From Candidatus Latescibacterota bacterium (GTDB lineage Bacteria > Latescibacterota > UBA2968 > UBA8231): a stretch of DNA of 40,835 bases. The DNA lies in NCBI GenBank assembly GCA_041661365.1, contig JBAZUN010000003.1, forward strand, positions 1 to 40,835, given 5' to 3'. The notes beneath the pieces are model-generated. The model was given only the letters and a program-made list of their open reading frames with translations, was not told the origin of the DNA and searched no databases. Shown here piece after piece: positions 1,926-40,835 of the stretch; position 1 is the stretch's first letter; the number at the start of each line of letters is the position of its first letter. A program made the translations under genes and the position numbers.

Positions 1926-2675
1926 ATGCTGCTGGCGCACCCGACCGGTCACTATCGCTTCCTCACCGGGATCGATCCCTACTCCTGCGGGGTGATCGCC
2001 GATCCGGGGTATCAGATCGTCCGCGCCGCCTTCGCCTGCCTGCTTCCCTGGCGGCAGGGGTTCGAGCGGATCGACGAGCACCTGCGGACCACCGGCCGGG
2101 GCCGGGAGGCGGTGTGCGCCGTGGAGCTGCGTTCGCCGGCCCCCTTCACCATGTCCGGGTTCATCGCCTTCAACCGGACCTACTGCGAGCTGCTGCGCGA
2201 CTGGAACCTGTACGTGGGCGAGTACAACCCCGTGGCGAGGACCAACGTGGCCCCGGTGCACCAACCTCCCTCGGAGGTCGTGCTGCATGCCTTCTCCTAT
2301 ACGGTTCCGGCGGCCGGACCGATGCGACCGACCCTGGTCGTAGCCGGAGCCGGCGAGCTGCGCGAGGGGGTGCTCGAGGAGGAGCGGATCATCCGCCCCG
2401 GCGAGGACAGCGCCGAGGCTCTGCGCGAGAAGGCGACCTACGTGATGCAGGTGATGACCGAGCGGCTATGCGGACTGGGCGGCGACTGGCCGATGGTGAC
2501 CAGCGTCAACGTCTACACCGCTCGCCTGGAGACCTGGGTTGCCGAGGAGATCGTGCTGGCCGGGACCGGGCCGGCACGTCGCGAGGGGCTCTGCTGGCAT
2601 TGCACCCGGCCGCCGGTGCAGCGGATCGACTTTGAGATGGACCTCCGCGGGGTCGCCACCGAGCTGGTGATCTAG
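1926..2675 (+). CDS. conserved hypothetical protein, possibly CnbZ-like deaminase family
   Basis: ORF 1860..2675. The TTG at 1860 abuts AGGAGG with no spacer, so ATG 1926 is preferred; the start is uncertain. Composition is globular. N-terminal HPTGHYRFLTGIDPYSCGVIA resembles my recollection of 2-amino-5-chloromuconate deaminase-like proteins (unverified). Confidence 0.55.
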   Translation: MLLAHPTGHYRFLTGIDPYSCGVIADPGYQIVRAAFACLLPWRQGFERIDEHLRTTGRGREAVCAVELRSPAPFTMSGFIAFNRTYCELLRDWNLYVGEYNPVARTNVAPVHQPPSEVVLHAFSYTVPAAGPMRPTLVVAGAGELREGVLEEERIIRPGEDSAEALREKATYVMQVMTERLCGLGGDWPMVTSVNVYTARLETWVAEEIVLAGTGPARREGLCWHCTRPPVQRIDFEMDLRGVATELVI

Positions 2676-2842
2676 TGTCGCGTCGCAGAAATAAGTTGTG
2701 TCATCGAGCGGGCCGAGGTGCCCGGCCAGCTAGGCGCGCGAACGCCCCGTATCGACAGCAAGATACAGGAAGTGAGCGCAACGACGCTGGCCGGGATGGA
2801 TCGGCCCGCGAATGCCAAGGTATTTCTGCGACGCGACACTAG
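2672..2842 (+). repeat. structured intergenic element, copy 1 (unassigned family)
   Basis: 22-bp perfect closing helix (2672-2693 with 2821-2842). Nested helices 2709-2716/2801-2808 and 2721-2730/2786-2795. Core blocks gctaggcgcgcga, gtgagcgNaacgNcg and ggcccgNgaatg are shared with the elements at 22423, 23853(-) and 35578. Confidence 0.7.
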
Positions 2843-21222: not shown

Positions 21223-22269
21223 TCAGCCGCGGAAGCGGTCGTAGTCGATCTCCAGGTTGTCCAGCTTCATGTAGAGATTCTTTCGCGACATCCCGATCGC
21301 ATCGGCCACCTGGGCGATGACCCCACGGTGACGGCGCAGGGCATCGCACAGATACCGGCGCTCGAACAGGGCCCGGGCCTCGTGGAAGGATACCGGTCCG
21401 GCAGCGGGTTCTTCCCCCGGCTCGCGCCAGTCGGCGATCTCCGCCGGGATATCGGCCAAGGTGAGGCGCTCACCCGCCGCCAGTACCACCATCTGCTCGA
21501 TCACGTTCTCCAATTCGCGCACGTTCCCCGGCCAGGGATAGGCCTGGAGCCGTTCGACGGCCGGTCCGGCAATGCTCCTCACCGGACTGCCGTTGCGGGC
21601 CGCGGCCTCGGCAAGGAAATGCTCGATCAGCAGGGGGATGTCCTCCCGTCGCTCCCGCAACGCCGGCAGTCGTACCGGCACCACGCTCAGTCGGTAGTAC
21701 AGGTCCTCGCGGAAACGCCCCTGCCGCACCTCGGCCTTCAGGTCGACGTTGGTCGCGGCCACCACCCGCACATCGACGCGCAGGGTCTCGGTCCCCCCTA
21801 CCCGTTCGAACTCGTGTTCCTGCAGCACGCGTAGGAGCCGCAGTTGCACCTTGGCATCGGCGGCTCCGATCTCGTCGAGCAGCAGGGTCCCCCCGTCCGC
21901 CAGCTCGAAACGGCCCGGCCGTTGACGGACCGCCCCGGTGAACGCCCCTCGCTCGTGTCCGAAGAGCTCGCTCTCCAGCACCCCCTCGGGAAGACTGGCG
22001 CAGCTCAGCCGCACGAAGGGACCGTCGCGCCGAGGACTCCAGCGGTGCAGGGCACGGGCGACCACCTCCTTGCCGGTGCCGCTCTCCCCCTCGATGAGCA
22101 CCGTGGCACTGGCCGCCGCGATCCGCGAGAGTCGTTCAAGGAGAAGCCTCATCTCCGGATTTTGCGTGAGGACCTCCCCTCTTCCATCAGAAGCCAAGGC
22201 CCCTTGGGCCGCTACCTGGACAGGGACAGGATGATCCGCGGACACGGAGGAGAACGATACATGATCCAT
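21223..22269 (-). CDS. sigma54-dependent transcriptional activator (bEBP) without a sensory domain
   Basis: ATG 22269 (MDHVSF) preceded by GGAGG (22276-22280). Walker [15 protein letters not shown] loop, and C-terminal Fis-type [22 protein letters not shown]. Only about 37 aa precede the AAA+ core. Confidence 0.9.
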
Positions 22270-22309
22270 GATATACCTCCAGTGGATATAACGGCCACTA
22301 TTTAATGTT

Positions 22310-22338
22310 GATATACGAATAAGAAATGTATTTGTCAA
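22310..22338 (-). promoter_or_regulatory. sigma70-like promoter in an AT-rich patch
   Basis: Minus strand: TTGACA (22333-22338) - 17 nt - TATATC (22310-22315), about 40 nt upstream of the bEBP ATG. Confidence 0.45.
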
Positions 22339-22422
22339 GTAATAAATGCAGGAGAAACGAACCGCGATCTTTGGTCCGGACTATTGGGCCAGGAAATGTC
22401 GAAGGGGGTCTGGCTAGAGCCT

Positions 22423-22573
22423 GTCCGAGTATTCGCTTCGCAGGCGAGGTCGAGTCATGGTGGTCGAGGGCCAGGCGCGCGAGTGAGGCGCATTGACCAC
22501 GAAATGCGCCGAGTGAGCGGAACGCCGCCCTCGGTCACCAGGGCCGGCCGCAGCCCGAATGGGATACTCGGAC
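22423..22573 (+). repeat. structured intergenic element, copy 2 (unassigned family)
   Basis: Closing helix gtccgagtat/atactcggac. The 41-nt block 22443-22483 is 31/41 identical to 35606-35646. The 3' block ggccgcagcccgaatggg matches 35744-35761 at 17/18. Confidence 0.75.
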
Positions 22574-22605
22574 CGGATCCTACGAGCGAGGGGCAGCGTC
22601 GCCGG

Positions 22606-23400
22606 TCAGGAGACCGGCATGACCTCAAGCCGCGAGGGGTGAACCTGCTCGCAGATCTCGGCGGCCAGACGAGCGTAGCTGAGGGCCCCGGTGGACAGGG
22701 GATCGTAGAGGATGATCGGCTGACCGAAGGCGGGAGCCTCGGCCAGACTCACGTTGCGGCGGATGAGGGTGCTGCAGACCTTGTCGCCGAAGTAACCGCG
22801 CACCTCAGCCGCCACCTTGCGGGAGAGTTGCAGCCGCTCGTCGTACATGGTGAGCACCACCCCTTCGAGGCGCAGACGGGGATTGAGGTGGCGCTGGACG
22901 AGGCGGATGGAGCCGAGCAGGTTGCTGAGCCCCTCCAGGGCATAATACTCACACTGGACCGGGATGAGCACCGAATCGGCAGCGGTCAACGCATTGACGG
23001 TGAGCAGCCCCAGGGACGGCGGGCAATCGATGAGGATGAAGTCGTAGTCCTCGCGGACCGGCGCCAGGGCCTGGGACAGCTTGCGCTCCCGCCCTATAAC
23101 GCTGGCCAACTCCACCTCGGCCCCGGCCAAACGGATATGGGCAGGCACCAGGGAGAGGTCAGGCACCTCGGTGGTGCGCGTCACGGCCCGGATGTCGGCC
23201 TGGCCCAGCAGAACCTCGTAGCTCGACCCGGCCAGGCTCTCCGCTGCCGCTCCGCACCCGCTCGTGGTATCTGCCTGGGGATCGAGGTCAACCAGAAGGG
23301 TCCGCCGTTGGTCGGCCGAAAGGCAGGCGGCCAGGTTCACCGTCGTCGTCGTCTTCCCGACGCCACCCTTCTGGTTCGCTACGGCGATGATCCTGCCCAT
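22606..23400 (-). CDS. parA: ParA/Soj-type partition ATPase (no adjacent parB)
   Basis: ATG 23400 (MGRIIAVANQKGGVGKTTTT, deviant Walker A). LVDLDPQ and the Soj-like remainder follow. The ORF extension to 23529 is not protein-like. Confidence 0.9.
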   Translation of the reverse strand: MGRIIAVANQKGGVGKTTTTVNLAACLSADQRRTLLVDLDPQADTTSGCGAAAESLAGSSYEVLLGQADIRAVTRTTEVPDLSLVPAHIRLAGAEVELASVIGRERKLSQALAPVREDYDFILIDCPPSLGLLTVNALTAADSVLIPVQCEYYALEGLSNLLGSIRLVQRHLNPRLRLEGVVLTMYDERLQLSRKVAAEVRGYFGDKVCSTLIRRNVSLAEAPAFGQPIILYDPLSTGALSYARLAAEICEQVHPSRLEVMPVS

Positions 23401-23596
23401 TCCCGCGATCCGCCCTGTTCCGCCGGCCAGACAACCACCCCAGAGGCTACCCTCAGACCCTGGCCATAGCAGGCCTGCGGGGCACCGTCGGGCAATACAC
23501 TGACCTTCATCCGAGGGCCGGAAATTCATCCGATCATTCGAATGTGCATGAACGAGAAAAATGTCATGCAGAGGTCAGGATCACCGCTGGGGCGAC

Positions 23597-23705: not shown

Positions 23706-23822
23706 TCACCCGGCGGAGAGGAAGGCCAGAAGGGCTCCCAGCGATAGGCCGGTGACGACGAAAAAGGCCAGGCACGCGCCCAGGGATGGCCAGGTTCTGT
23801 TGCCCGATCCACATTTGTGCAT
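23706..23822 (-). CDS. putative 38-aa single-pass membrane peptide
   Basis: Not in the ORF track (too short). GGAGG (23829-23833) - 6 nt - ATG. Sequence MHKCGSGNRTWPSLGACLAFFVVTGLSLGALLAFLSAG. About 76% G/C at third codon positions, as in genuine genes here. Confidence 0.35.
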   Translation of the reverse strand: MHKCGSGNRTWPSLGACLAFFVVTGLSLGALLAFLSAG

Positions 23823-23852: not shown

Positions 23853-23950
23853 CTGTCCGACATCCCATTCGGGCCGCGACCGGTCCTTGCGGCTGAGATC
23901 GGCGTTCCGCTTGGCCGCAGGGACAGACCTTTATGCGGGTATATCGGCAG
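23853..23950 (-). repeat. structured intergenic element, copy 3 (reverse orientation, 5'-truncated)
   Basis: The reverse complement reads ctgccgatat..aagcggaacgccg..ccggtcgcggcccgaatggg atgtcggacag. It aligns with the 3' half of copy 2 and keeps a closing helix (one G-U pair and one bulge). Confidence 0.6.
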
Positions 23951-25499: not shown

Positions 25500-26314
25500 C
25501 CGACCCCGGCCCGTATCGACAGCTCGTCGAGATCATGGCCAGGCTGCGCGCCGAGGACGGCTGCCCCTGGGATCGACAGCAGACCCACGAATCGCTGCGC
25601 AGCTACCTCATCGAGGAGGCGTACGAGGTTCTCGAGACCATCGACCAAGGCCGCCACCACGAGCTGTGCAGCGAGCTGGGAGACGTACTCCTGCAGATCG
25701 CCTTCCACGCCCAGCTCGCCGCCGAGGCGGGGCGGTTCACCATGGACGACGTCTGCCGGGCGATCGTGGCCAAGCTGATCCATCGGCATCCCCACGTCTT
25801 CGGCGAGACCCGGGTCCAGGACGCCGCCGAGGTGCTGACCAACTGGGAGCGGCTCAAGCGCGAGGAAAAAGGAGAGGCTGCCGAGGCCCACTCGGTCGTC
25901 GACGGGGTTCCCGTGCACCTGCCGGCCCTCCTGCGCGCCCAGCGGATCCAGGCGCGCGCGGCCCGCGTCGGCTTCGACTGGGATCAGATCCAGGGTCCGC
26001 TGGACAAGGTGCAGGAGGAGTTCGCCGAGCTGCGGGCCGACTGGGAGCGGGGGGATCGCGTCAAGGTCGAGGAGGAGCTGGGTGACCTCCTCTTCTCCCT
26101 GGTCAACGTCTCGCGCTTCCTAAAGGTCAACCCGGAGGATGCCCTGCGTCAGGCCGTGTCCAAGTTCGAGCGGCGCTTCCGGGCGGTCGAGCAGACCTTT
26201 CGCGAACAGGGACGCGAGCTGTCGTCCGCCACCCTCGCGCAGATGGACGAGGTATGGGAGCGGGTAAAGGCGTCAGAATCGACGAACGGAACCGACGCGC
26301 GGAAGGAGGCCTGA
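25496..26314 (+). CDS. mazG: nucleoside triphosphate pyrophosphohydrolase MazG (two-domain)
   Basis: The ATG overlaps the preceding stop (ATGA). Motifs: CPWDRQQTHESLRSYLIEEAYEVLE, ELGDVLLQI; second domain EELGDLLFSLVN. Confidence 0.9.
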   Translation: MTDPGPYRQLVEIMARLRAEDGCPWDRQQTHESLRSYLIEEAYEVLETIDQGRHHELCSELGDVLLQIAFHAQLAAEAGRFTMDDVCRAIVAKLIHRHPHVFGETRVQDAAEVLTNWERLKREEKGEAAEAHSVVDGVPVHLPALLRAQRIQARAARVGFDWDQIQGPLDKVQEEFAELRADWERGDRVKVEEELGDLLFSLVNVSRFLKVNPEDALRQAVSKFERRFRAVEQTFREQGRELSSATLAQMDEVWERVKASESTNGTDARKEA

Positions 26315-27339
26315 TGGCAACGCAACCGAGCCGGAGCACCAGGGACGGAGGCTCCCGGTACCGCTGGGTACAGGTCAGCGGGCAGGCCGCCTTTGCGCCC
26401 AGGGACGGGGCCGGGGCCCTGGTCTTCAACGGCCGGATGTGGCTCCTGGGAGGGTGGAATCCTCCGGACCGCGTGCACTTCCCGTGGAAGTGCAGCAACG
26501 ACGTGTGGAGCTCGGTCGACGGTGCCCGATGGGTGCTGGAGAAGGAGAACACCTTCTGCGAGGGAAGGTTCGAGCCGGAGCGCGACTGGGAGGGACGCCA
26601 CACGGCGGGGTACGCGGTGCTACGCGACCGGATGTGGATCATCGGGGGCGACCCGCTTCAGGGCCACTATCAGAACGACGTCTGGAGTTCGGCCGACGGC
26701 CGCTCCTGGCGACACGAGAACCCGGGCCGCCAGGTCCCCTGGGGACCGCGGGCCCTGCACTACACCTTGGTCTTCCGCGACCGGCTGTGGGTGATGGGCG
26801 GTCAGACCGTGCCGCAGTTCGCCCCTGCGCCGCTGCACCTGCACGACGACGTCTGGTGCTCGACCAACGGCGTGGACTGGAGCCGGATCGAGCCGGCCGG
26901 GTCTCGCTGGTGTCCCCGGGGGATGATCGGCGGCAGCGCGGTCTTCGCCGACCGGATGTGGGTCCTCGGCGGCGGCACCTACGACACCCCGGAAACCCCG
27001 TCGCGCCAGTTCTTCAGCGACGTCTGGAGCTCGGCCGACGGTCGCCACTGGGAGTGCCACTGCGAGCGCGCCCCCTGGCATCCGCGGCAGTACCACGAGG
27101 TCGCGGTCTTCGACGGCCGGCTCTGGGTTCTCGAGGGCTGGAACCAGGCCAACCGGAACGACGTGTGGTATTCCGAGGACGGGGTCGAATGGCACGAGCT
27201 GCCCGACACCCCCTGGGCACCCCGGCACGCGGCCAGCGTCTTCGTCCACGACGACGCCCTGTGGATGGTCGCCGGGAACAACATGGAAAGCGACGTCTGG
27301 CGCCTCGAGCGTCAGCCGATTTCGACTTCAAGCTCCTGA
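26314..27339 (+). CDS. Kelch-type six-bladed beta-propeller protein (cytoplasmic)
   Basis: The ATG overlaps the mazG stop (TGATG) and is preceded by GGAAGGAGG. Six repeats of the type DR(M/L)W..GG....NDVWSS.DG..W. No signal peptide. Confidence 0.8.
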   Translation: MATQPSRSTRDGGSRYRWVQVSGQAAFAPRDGAGALVFNGRMWLLGGWNPPDRVHFPWKCSNDVWSSVDGARWVLEKENTFCEGRFEPERDWEGRHTAGYAVLRDRMWIIGGDPLQGHYQNDVWSSADGRSWRHENPGRQVPWGPRALHYTLVFRDRLWVMGGQTVPQFAPAPLHLHDDVWCSTNGVDWSRIEPAGSRWCPRGMIGGSAVFADRMWVLGGGTYDTPETPSRQFFSDVWSSADGRHWECHCERAPWHPRQYHEVAVFDGRLWVLEGWNQANRNDVWYSEDGVEWHELPDTPWAPRHAASVFVHDDALWMVAGNNMESDVWRLERQPISTSSS

Positions 27340-35577: not shown

Positions 35578-35777
35578 GCAGCCCGTTGAAAAAGCCGCTT
35601 TGCCTGGCGAGGCCGAGGGATGGCGGGGCCTGGCTAGGCGCGCGAGCAACAGCGCATCGAGGGAAGATGCGCAGCGCGAGCGGCACAGGGACGTGGCCGG
35701 ATCGAGAGCGATCCGGCACACGACGCCAGGGCCCGTCAGCACCGGCCGCAGCCCTAATGGGCTTTTCAACGGGCTGC
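35578..35777 (+). repeat. structured intergenic element, copy 4 (unassigned family)
   Basis: Closing helix gcagcccgttgaaaaagcc/ggcttttcaacgggctgc. Same core blocks as copy 2. An extra 9-bp hairpin lies at 35696-35717. Confidence 0.75.
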
Positions 35778-35780
35778 TAA

Positions 35781-35891
35781 GTCAGGTCCGCGGCACCCGC
35801 AGCAGGAGCACCGGCACCTGGACGAGGTGGCGCACCTTGTCGACGGTGCTGCCGTAGATCAGGTCGCTGAGGAAACGGTGGCCGTGGGTCG
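35781..35891 (-). pseudogene. orphan duplicate of the usp 3' end (last 36 codons plus stop)
   Basis: 110/111 identical to 37705-37815; the only difference is A35843 versus G37767. Confidence 0.85.
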
Positions 35892-37704: not shown

Positions 37705-37815
37705 GTCAGGTCCGCGGCACCCGCAGCAGGAGCACCGGCACCTGGACGAGGTGGCGCACCTTGTCGGCGGTGCTGCCGTAGATCAGGTCGCTGAGGAAAC
37801 GGTGGCCGTGGGTCG
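37705..37815. repeat. direct repeat partner (genuine usp 3' end)
   Basis: Matches 35781-35891 at 110/111. Confidence 0.85.
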
Positions 37816-38134
37816 ACATGGCGATCAGGTCGACCTGCTTCTCCCGCGCCAGGCGGATGATCTCGTCCGCCGGCTCCCCCATGACCAGGGAGCACTCGAC
37901 CTCGAACCCCTCGGCCTGCAACTGCCGGGTCTGCTCCTCCAGGTAGGTCAGATCCTGTCGGATCTCCTCGCTGGCGGCCAGGTTCAACTGGTCGAAGTTA
38001 CGCGCCGCCCACCCGTCCGCCACGTGCACCAGGAGGAGGGTCGCACCGGTCAGCTTGGCCAGGGGGCGGATGTGGTCCAGGATGACCTGGTCGGCCGCGG
38101 TGTTCTCCAGCGGCACGAGAATCCGATTGTACAT
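37706..38134 (-). CDS. universal stress protein (UspA family)
   Basis: MYNRILVPLENT..LLLVHV..DLIAMSTHGHRFLSDLIYGSTADKVRH..PVLLL. AAAGGAG RBS. Confidence 0.9.
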   Translation of the reverse strand: MYNRILVPLENTAADQVILDHIRPLAKLTGATLLLVHVADGWAARNFDQLNLAASEEIRQDLTYLEEQTRQLQAEGFEVECSLVMGEPADEIIRLAREKQVDLIAMSTHGHRFLSDLIYGSTADKVRHLVQVPVLLLRVPRT

Positions 38135-40660: not shown

Positions 40661-40835
40661 CCCGTCCCCGCTGCCCGTCCCCGGTTTCGCTCGTCCCTAT
40701 CGCGTCCCCGCCGTGCCTAGGTCCAACTCGCCAACTCCCCGACTACCCCCAACCGGATCTGTCAAGTTCCTCATCGTCCGGGTCCGACCCCGTGGTAATG
40801 AAACGGGTCGGAGCGCCGGTCGGGGGATGGACGTG

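Follow-up and report, generated by a model that had tools for sequence, protein, structure and literature searches.

What is the structured element that lies in the spacer between parA and the gene of a bacterial enhancer-binding protein (bEBP, a sigma-54 activator) on contig JBAZUN010000003.1 of a Candidatus Latescibacterota bacterium? The stretch analysed, called the window below, comprises the 40,835 nucleotides (nt) from position 1 to position 40,835 of that contig (assembly GCA_041661365.1). A preliminary description had singled out the element, designated c2 here, and implied a structured RNA dedicated to the two neighbouring genes. The observation proved to be real and the interpretation holds in part. 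We conclude that c2 is probably a non-autonomous mobile element resembling MITEs (transposable elements of miniature size with inverted repeats), about 163 nt long and inserted in the parA-bEBP spacer of a Latescibacterota-like chromosome, and that it is not a dedicated regulator of parA or bEBP. For the window, this removes a candidate regulatory RNA of the two genes.

The plan of the element is simple: subfamily-specific terminal inverted repeats enclose variable complementary arms, which carry a conserved apical module and, optionally, an extra stem on the 3' side. The module consists, in this order, of AGGCGCGCGA, a variable hairpin and GYGAGCGSMACG. The features of c2, followed by its two neighbours, are these:

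22417 to 22579, plus strand: c2, the full element, 163 nt between terminal repeats, GAGCCTGTCCGAGTATTCGC...GGGATACTCGGACCGGATC (fold, covariance-model scores, and termini in common with locus L251)
22414 to 22416, no strand: left flanking CTA, a candidate target-site duplication (direct repeat with 22580 to 22582, read from the sequence)
22580 to 22582, no strand: right flanking CTA (read from the sequence)
22473 to 22482, plus strand: 5' block of the conserved core, AGGCGCGCGA (identical in c2 and in two other full copies of the window, c1 and c4; half of the retrieval pattern used below)
22487 to 22510, plus strand: variable apical hairpin, ggcgcatt/aatgcgcc (compensatory changes, helix 8)
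22513 to 22524, plus strand: 3' block of the conserved core, GTGAGCGGAACG (sequence and alignment)
22606 to 23529, minus strand: open reading frame (ORF) of parA (AAA_31, CbiA and ParA domains)
21223 to 22338, minus strand: bEBP gene (Sigma54_activat domain)

The sequence details given for c2 in the preliminary description were all recovered. The block at 22443-22483 matches 35606-35646 without gaps at 31 of 41 positions (76%), and the near-identical 18-mer GGCCGCAGCCCGAATGGG occurs a second time at 35744-35761 with one mismatch (five matches at up to three mismatches, where 0.31 were expected). The closing helix, the helices P2 and P3 and the apical hairpin are all present in the plus-strand minimum-free-energy fold. 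Position 22573, at which the element had been thought to end, is 33 nt from the parA stop, and the bEBP gene lies on the other side. The extent of 151 nt, by contrast, had to be revised: the alignment with L251, a locus of another Latescibacterota metagenome-assembled genome (MAG), extends the terminal repeats past the closing helix, so that the true ends are 22417 and 22579. These terminal inverted repeats read GAGCCTGTCC.../...GGACCGGATC, and the termini GAGCSTGTCCSAGTATTCGCTT... and ...AATGGRATRCTYGGAC are conserved between the two genomes. The L251 copy scored 97.8 bits with a model built from the window and L201 copies alone, L201 being a metagenome contig.

The fold of c2 is strong and depends on the strand: the plus strand reaches -97.2 kcal/mol (z = -6.6, none of 200 shuffles as good), the minus strand -77.9 kcal/mol (z = -2.8). 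Two covariance models were used, R1, which was made from c2, c4 and the L201 copy and did not include c1, and R2; c2 scored 135 bits with R1 and 120.7 bits with R2. GAGTGA is present on both arms of c2, which in a single-stranded fold would give tandem G.A pairs. As had been argued before, no peptide is encoded, for there is no conserved ORF and the indels are not multiples of three; the spacing difference of 35 nt between copies is a 35-nt insertion in c4 at 35684-35718 (alignment A1). Nor is c2 part of a segmental duplication: it is discrete, the flanks of the copies being unrelated to each other.

The window contains three full copies (c1, c2 and c4) and one 5'-truncated copy (c3), all with unrelated flanks. 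The three copies other than c2 are as follows:

2672 to 2842, plus strand: c1, with a 27-bp terminal helix, C-TA-[GTGTCGCG...CGCGACAC]-TA-G (R1, R2, inverted repeat I16)
35578 to 35777, plus strand: c4, with termini GCAGCCCGTTGA...TCAACGGGCTGC and a 35-nt extra hairpin at 35684-35718 (fold, alignment)
23853 to 23912, minus strand: c3, a c2-subfamily copy that has lost its 5' part and extends from AGCGGAACGCC as far as the right terminal repeat (inverted repeat I1, blastn, alignment A4)

Although c1 had no part in R1, the model found it at 2688-2826 with 41.7 bits (E 5e-8), and R2 gave it 78.3 bits. Its terminal repeat is 27 bp long at 93% identity (I16), its fold has a z of -10 to -11 on the two strands, and termini of the same style are carried by elements of other Latescibacterota and of deltaproteobacterial MAGs. 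The left end of c1 overlaps the TAG stop (2673-2675) of an ORF at 1860-2675, the stop being composed of the TA flank and the first base of c1. If this ORF, which has no Pfam match, is a real gene, then the insertion of c1 supplied or replaced its stop codon.

The copy c4 folds as c2 does, and its termini recur in L201, beside genes for a short-chain dehydrogenase/reductase (SDR) and an amidohydrolase, and twice in L261, a Gemmatimonadota MAG. Its extra hairpin has counterparts of 35-40 nt at one fixed site, just 3' of the ...GAGCGSMACG block, in L264, L299 and L331, Planctomycetota copies among these. The inserts of c4 and of the Planctomycetota copies are unrelated in sequence; the site looks like an optional third stem or an insertion hot spot. 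The truncated copy c3 lies in the spacer between the sigma-70 gene and parA, inverted relative to c2. It was recognised from inverted repeat I1 (23862-23911, 50 nt at 82%) and by blastn (81% over 58 nt), and was not detected by R2. The four repeats of the window are jointly explained as insertions of one selfish element.

The edge of c4 bears a mark of another kind. A 111-nt segment is present twice at 99% identity, at 35781-35891 and at 37705-37815 (repeat D2). The intact copy consists of the last 36 codons and the stop of a universal stress protein (Usp) gene (37706-38134, minus strand; Usp domain), and the orphan Usp fragment lies 3 nt from the right end of c4, with an aminotransferase gene on its other side, which hints at a recent rearrangement at the c4 edge.

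Could c2 act as a cis-regulatory RNA (riboswitch, attenuator or 3'-untranslated-region element) of parA or bEBP? Its place, 33 nt beyond the stop of parA and upstream of bEBP, would suit such a role, but the strand that folds better is antisense to both genes. The other copies flank genes for an oxidoreductase, an aminotransferase and a phosphopantetheinyl transferase, and the L201 copy those named above, with no function in common. Relative to the coding strand of the flanking genes, the orientation of the elements is random: 21 upstream genes lie on the same strand and 18 on the opposite one, and for downstream genes the numbers are 12 and 15. Truncated copies exist, and the orthologous spacers are empty. 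A dedicated regulatory RNA, as the preliminary description implied, is thus largely refuted, and we give it hardly any credence.

The empty spacers were found by comparing lineages in which the gene order RodA-TPR-bEBP-ParA-sigma70-MazG is conserved, at 75-79% ParA identity. In four related lineages, no copy was present in the ParA-bEBP spacer (197-655 nt) or in the approximately 100 kb around it, and the spacer is also empty across relatives at 69-79% ParA identity. The 655-nt spacer, that of L192 (79% ParA identity), contains two tandem repeats of about 185 nt and a partial third one (1196-1570). That these might be diverged copies of the element was rejected by blastn and by both covariance models; this spacer is colonised by a different repeat.

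We then asked how far the family extends. The apical core, written as AGGCGCGCGA-N26-34-GYGAGCGSMACG, was scanned over a genome collection and gave at least 112 matches; among the 112 listed, about 65 are long hairpin elements and the rest are chance matches in coding regions. By MAG or strain label, the hosts belong to at least seven phyla and include Planctomycetota, Latescibacterota, Gemmatimonadota, Acidobacteriota, Myxococcota and other deltaproteobacteria, Elusimicrobia, and Alpha-, Beta- and Gammaproteobacteria. A single Planctomycetota MAG has more than 15 copies, and many copies lie at contig ends, as do repeats that break assemblies. In these loci R1 also found copies independently of the pattern (L261 6944-7079, L259 773-896 and L285 2172-2306). 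Full elements are typically about 165 nt long; the window copies measure 163-200 nt, those found elsewhere 165-270 nt. Clear terminal inverted repeats were seen in 29 family members. Other searches yielded little. The 3' block GGYCGCRGCCCKAATGGG and a 20-nt version of it gave only chance matches in coding regions of the genome contigs, while one of 18 matches in the metagenomes was a real copy; in viral contigs there were four pattern matches, none convincing as an element.

The termini of c2 and of c4 recur in other genomes, so the closing helices mark subfamilies and did not arise separately at each locus. The preliminary description was right that the closing helices differ between copies; what needs correcting is that they are not specific to single loci. 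In several gammaproteobacteria the elements are about 265-270 nt long and have two core modules on opposite strands. In four of these (L246 5398-5640, L285 3738-3980, L272 4286-4555 and L277 5575-5843) a CCTTCGGG-like turn joins the two cores, and both lie within a single pair of terminal repeats, forming a head-to-head 'dimer'.

No description of this family was found. Rfam had nothing at gathering score for the whole window, nothing relevant at E <= 10 for the c2 region, and no family at E <= 1 for the elements of L201, L298, L308 and L292; including ERIC and Correia sequences at that threshold brought no family for the element either. The core sequence, searched as text in the literature, led only to the lac promoter region of cloning vectors, and to no paper on the core motif. 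The family thus looks like an apparently undescribed one, with ends interchangeable between subfamilies, a structured core that folds on one strand and is found across phyla, and a tie to the Correia repeats of Neisseria that is taken up below.

Several traits are those of MITEs. The elements are small (less than about 400 bp) and non-coding, have terminal inverted repeats, and occur as dispersed copies that are present in some lineages and absent from others. They are flanked by TA, often within CTAG, or by TNA; C-TA-G is found on both sides of c1 and of many members, and CTA on both sides of c2. TA and CTAG, as in c1, are palindromic and therefore ambiguous as duplications. The Planctomycetota subfamily is more informative: TNA forms the left flank of 12 of 13 copies, and the middle base is repeated on the right as a direct repeat in eight copies and as an inverted repeat in two. 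A middle base that is mostly in direct repeat is what a 3-bp target duplication predicts. Truncation occurs at differing points, in c3 and in the L240, L269 and L280 copies; in the latter three, one end is apparently missing and unique sequence follows.

Is the hairpin itself maintained? Forty-one copies were aligned to R1, in an alignment fitted to the structure, and their pairs were counted. Standard pairs are found at 90.5% of pair positions (a pair position being one sequence at one pair), compared to 62% in shuffles, and 37 of 45 pairs show changes on both sides, that is, compensatory changes. In the apical hairpin (helix 8), all seven pairs do so, and 91% of the pair positions are standard. 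The covariation score is 0.60, compared to 0.17 in shuffles (none of 500 reaches the observed value) and about 0.07 when the partners are slid, so the covariation of the helices claimed from the window copies was borne out far above both controls. This shows that the hairpin is maintained; it does not by itself prove an RNA function, because the arms of palindromic mobile DNA are complementary by origin and because the alignment was fitted to the structure. One strand is favoured: the modelled strand has the better fold in 37 of the 41 copies and in 17 of the 19 genome groups, with a mean advantage of 7.4 kcal/mol. Moreover, many members, c2 included, have GAGYGA on both arms as a direct repeat, giving tandem G.A pairs in the single-stranded fold.

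These properties are also those expected if the copies were independently transcribed genes for structured small RNAs, that is, paralogues with a functional core, whose outer helices drift and need only pair. The strong covariation, the same strand folding better in nearly all copies, the conservation of unpaired and G.A positions, and an optional extra stem at a fixed site, as in many structured RNAs, all fit this explanation. It accounts poorly for the TA and TNA flanking repeats and the terminal inverted repeats, for dozens of near-identical copies in single genomes, some at contig ends, for truncated copies and absence in related lineages, and for the long gammaproteobacterial forms with two modules on opposite strands. 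Furthermore, Rfam offers no match, and scans for sigma-70-type sites found no promoter-like or terminator-like sites at c1, c2 and c4. We consider small-RNA genes unlikely. Among known structured RNAs, three candidates were rejected: a k-turn, since 3 bp separate the 3-nt bulge from the G.A pairs, and the known ribozymes, whose catalytic-core motifs are absent (both judged from sequence), as well as a retron RNA, for which there is no reverse transcriptase.

Alternatively, the hairpin may be a substrate of recombination and move in the form of single-stranded DNA, like the ends of IS200/IS605, the REPINs moved by RAYT transposases, or the attC sites of integrons. An enzyme would then read the folded core of one strand, and the TA at each end would be target and cleavage site and not a true duplication. 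Arms that conserve structure and not sequence, strand-specific folding that tolerates G-T pairs, mismatched positions whose conservation makes sense only in a folded single strand, and the lack of any DDE transposase partner among the sequences searched are all in favour. Direct TNA repeats with a variable middle base, on the other hand, resemble real duplications; the window ORFs scanned yielded no domain of a Y1/HUH transposase or an integrase; RYYYAAC and GTTRRRY, the end motifs of attC, do not follow each other in the order needed; and the copies are dispersed, with no arrays. This explanation is, in our opinion, quite unlikely. An attC site proper was rejected. Such sites have R'' (RYYYAAC) ... 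R' (GTTRRRY) ends and a variable centre, and stand in arrays next to an integrase, whereas here the ends vary and the centre is conserved, the order in c4 (GTTGAAA...TTTCAAC) is the reverse of that of attC, and the window copies lie 1.3-20 kb apart among housekeeping genes.

A site acting as double-stranded DNA was also considered, either a palindromic site for protein binding, or a cruciform one (serving, for example, nucleoid proteins or chromosome partition), or a barrier to transcription in both directions. That c2 adjoins parA, that c1 is a long near-perfect palindrome which folds equally on both strands, and that the element is always intergenic could be so explained. However, other copies stand beside unrelated genes, the core is not palindromic (GAGYGA being a direct repeat on both arms), folding differs between the strands, and relatives with the same parA-bEBP synteny lack the element. 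Such a site seems very improbable to us.

A MITE-like element thus remains the preferred reading, and several points weigh against it. The repeats at the flanks are short, and in several cases imperfect: c4 has CAA/TAA, and the flanks of L201 are not clear-cut. Neither the window nor 19 Planctomycetota loci yielded an autonomous partner or a parent insertion sequence with these termini; in the Planctomycetota loci a terminal repeat never occurs without a core nearby, and a Pfam search of 40 window ORFs found housekeeping domains or no match, with no transposase, integrase or reverse-transcriptase domain. Mobility is deduced from the element's anatomy and from sites that are empty in rather distant relatives. 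Conservation is highest at the centre, and not at the termini as in ordinary MITEs, which a simple MITE model leaves unexplained. The asymmetry between strands, like the conservation of G.A mismatches, suggests that a single-stranded form is functional, which could equally mean an RNA gene. Finally, G-U pairs outnumber A-C mismatches (124 to 44 overall; 74 to 30 in the arms alone, 12 groups against 3), but the covariance-model alignment itself accounts for part of this excess, and the ratio is the opposite in the arms of the Planctomycetota subfamily (5 to 15). Selection on one strand more likely concerns the propagation of the element than the control of host genes, since its orientation relative to these genes is random.

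For a MITE-like element, the following mechanism may be proposed. An enzyme that cuts at TA or TNA targets, and is not encoded in the window, would move the element in trans. A single-stranded form of a defined strand, either transcript or DNA, would serve the propagation of the element itself and not the neighbouring genes; that such a form matters is suggested by a core conserved across phyla while the termini vary, and by the better folding of one strand. Effects on parA or bEBP, if any, would be incidental; in a read-through mRNA the long hairpin could block or attract RNases. This last point is proposed by likeness to what is reported for two known repeats, Correia and ERIC, transcripts with the former being cleaved by RNase III and those with the latter by RNase E (PMC10969869).

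How does the family relate to repeats already described? Ordinary MITEs have their termini in common with a parent insertion sequence. In the present family the termini vary by subfamily and the centre is conserved across phyla, and the loci searched contained no parent element. The family is the opposite of the usual MITE pattern in this respect, a structured centre being kept across at least seven phyla while the ends are interchangeable. The likeness to ordinary MITEs that derive from insertion sequences of the IS5 or IS630 type is otherwise close, as these too are small, intergenic and multi-copy, with terminal inverted repeats, TA or TNA duplications and long hairpins at the RNA level (PMC3184786). 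According to a MITE census covering 183,232 genomes, these elements are for the most part genus-specific, and at 95% identity no bacterial cluster combined different phyla (PMC11602168).

The Correia repeats (CREE or NEMIS) of Neisseria resemble the family: they are hairpin repeats found between genes, measure about 105-156 nt, have terminal inverted repeats and are flanked by TA. In N. gonorrhoeae, the Correia consensus used was found in at least 40 places, at 97% identity. The left half of Correia (CAGGACAAGGCG-ACGAAGCCGCAGACAGTACAAATAGTACG) aligns with the betaproteobacterial members L241, L247 and L313 (z = 10.7-13.6), which carry the family core and score 33-43 bits with R2. Direct similarity was not found: c1, c2 and c4 compared with Correia gave z = 0.3-1.3 (0.4 for c2), and R2 had no match at E <= 1 on a gonococcal Correia copy. 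The Correia termini (TATAGTGGATTAA...), a repeat of 26 bp, are not common to the present family, and in place of the compact apical hairpin there is an AT-richer central part of about 60 nt. This central part holds a site for integration host factor. Judging by these alignments, the link to Correia is real but indirect, by way of the betaproteobacterial intermediates. In passing, NZ_CP119142.1 and NZ_CP119140.1, two N. gonorrhoeae records of 2.17 Mb filed as plasmids, each contain at least 40 Correia copies and evidently represent chromosomes.

ERIC (also IRU), of Enterobacteriaceae and Vibrionaceae, is likewise a hairpin repeat, of about 127 nt, found in either orientation between genes. To our knowledge, no transposase is known for Correia or ERIC, and the question of what moves them has been open for more than 30 years. 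The ERIC of E. coli has the layout of the family, AAGGCG..GCGAGTGA, a hairpin, then GGTGAGCGAACGCAG. R2 matches it end-to-end and in register, but with 14 bits only (E 0.07 in 16.6 kb), and R1 does not match it. A difference lies in the Rfam model V_AS5, which matches ERIC (46.9 bits) but not L201, L298, L308 or L292. The homology of ERIC to the family is no more than suggestive. ERIC is also described as having terminal inverted repeats, target duplications and TA flanks (PMC3184786). The ERIC copy concerned, L332 109-232, lies between ybhJ and ybhI; its match is to RF02818, 'Vibrio RNA AS5' (gathering score 96), a family that therefore appears to be a Vibrio ERIC-type repeat.

The REP sequences (repetitive palindromes outside genes), with the BIMEs and the RAYT-associated REPINs, share with the family that they are extragenic palindromes, selfish, and recognised as structures. 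They differ in being 20-40 nt long, in having a conserved 5' tetranucleotide of the GTAG type, and in lacking a target duplication; no RAYT-like gene was present among the scanned window ORFs.

It is conceivable, and we propose it only tentatively, that the window element, Correia and perhaps ERIC form one ancient superfamily of mobile hairpins, spread over at least seven phyla and defined not by their ends but by a conserved apical module of about 50 nt that folds on one strand only and has tandem G.A pairs. If this is true, a common mechanism of mobilisation or maintenance would read a single-stranded form of the element, RNA or DNA, and the presence of the core could be compared with that of candidate enzymes across genomes, giving a handle on what moves ERIC and Correia. 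The conserved core would then also be a search key, and a covariance model could map the superfamily across genomes.

Three minor observations may be added. Repeats with a period of about 171 nt at 26254-27339 (D1, D3-D5) are the blades of a Kelch-repeat protein gene and not non-coding. The closest relative, P0001, has a ParA with 98% identity, of 264 amino acids compared to the 307 of the window ORF; the called ParA gene probably starts at a later codon than this ORF. Lastly, between the sigma-70 gene and parA lies an ORF of 38 codons (MHKCGSGNRTWPSLGACLAFFVVTGLSLGALLAFLSAG; 23706-23822, minus strand). Hydrophobic mini-ORFs are found at the same position in relatives, where they are readable in L110 and L190 and called as genes of 36-39 amino acids in L338 and L340, so that a conserved small membrane protein is probably encoded there.

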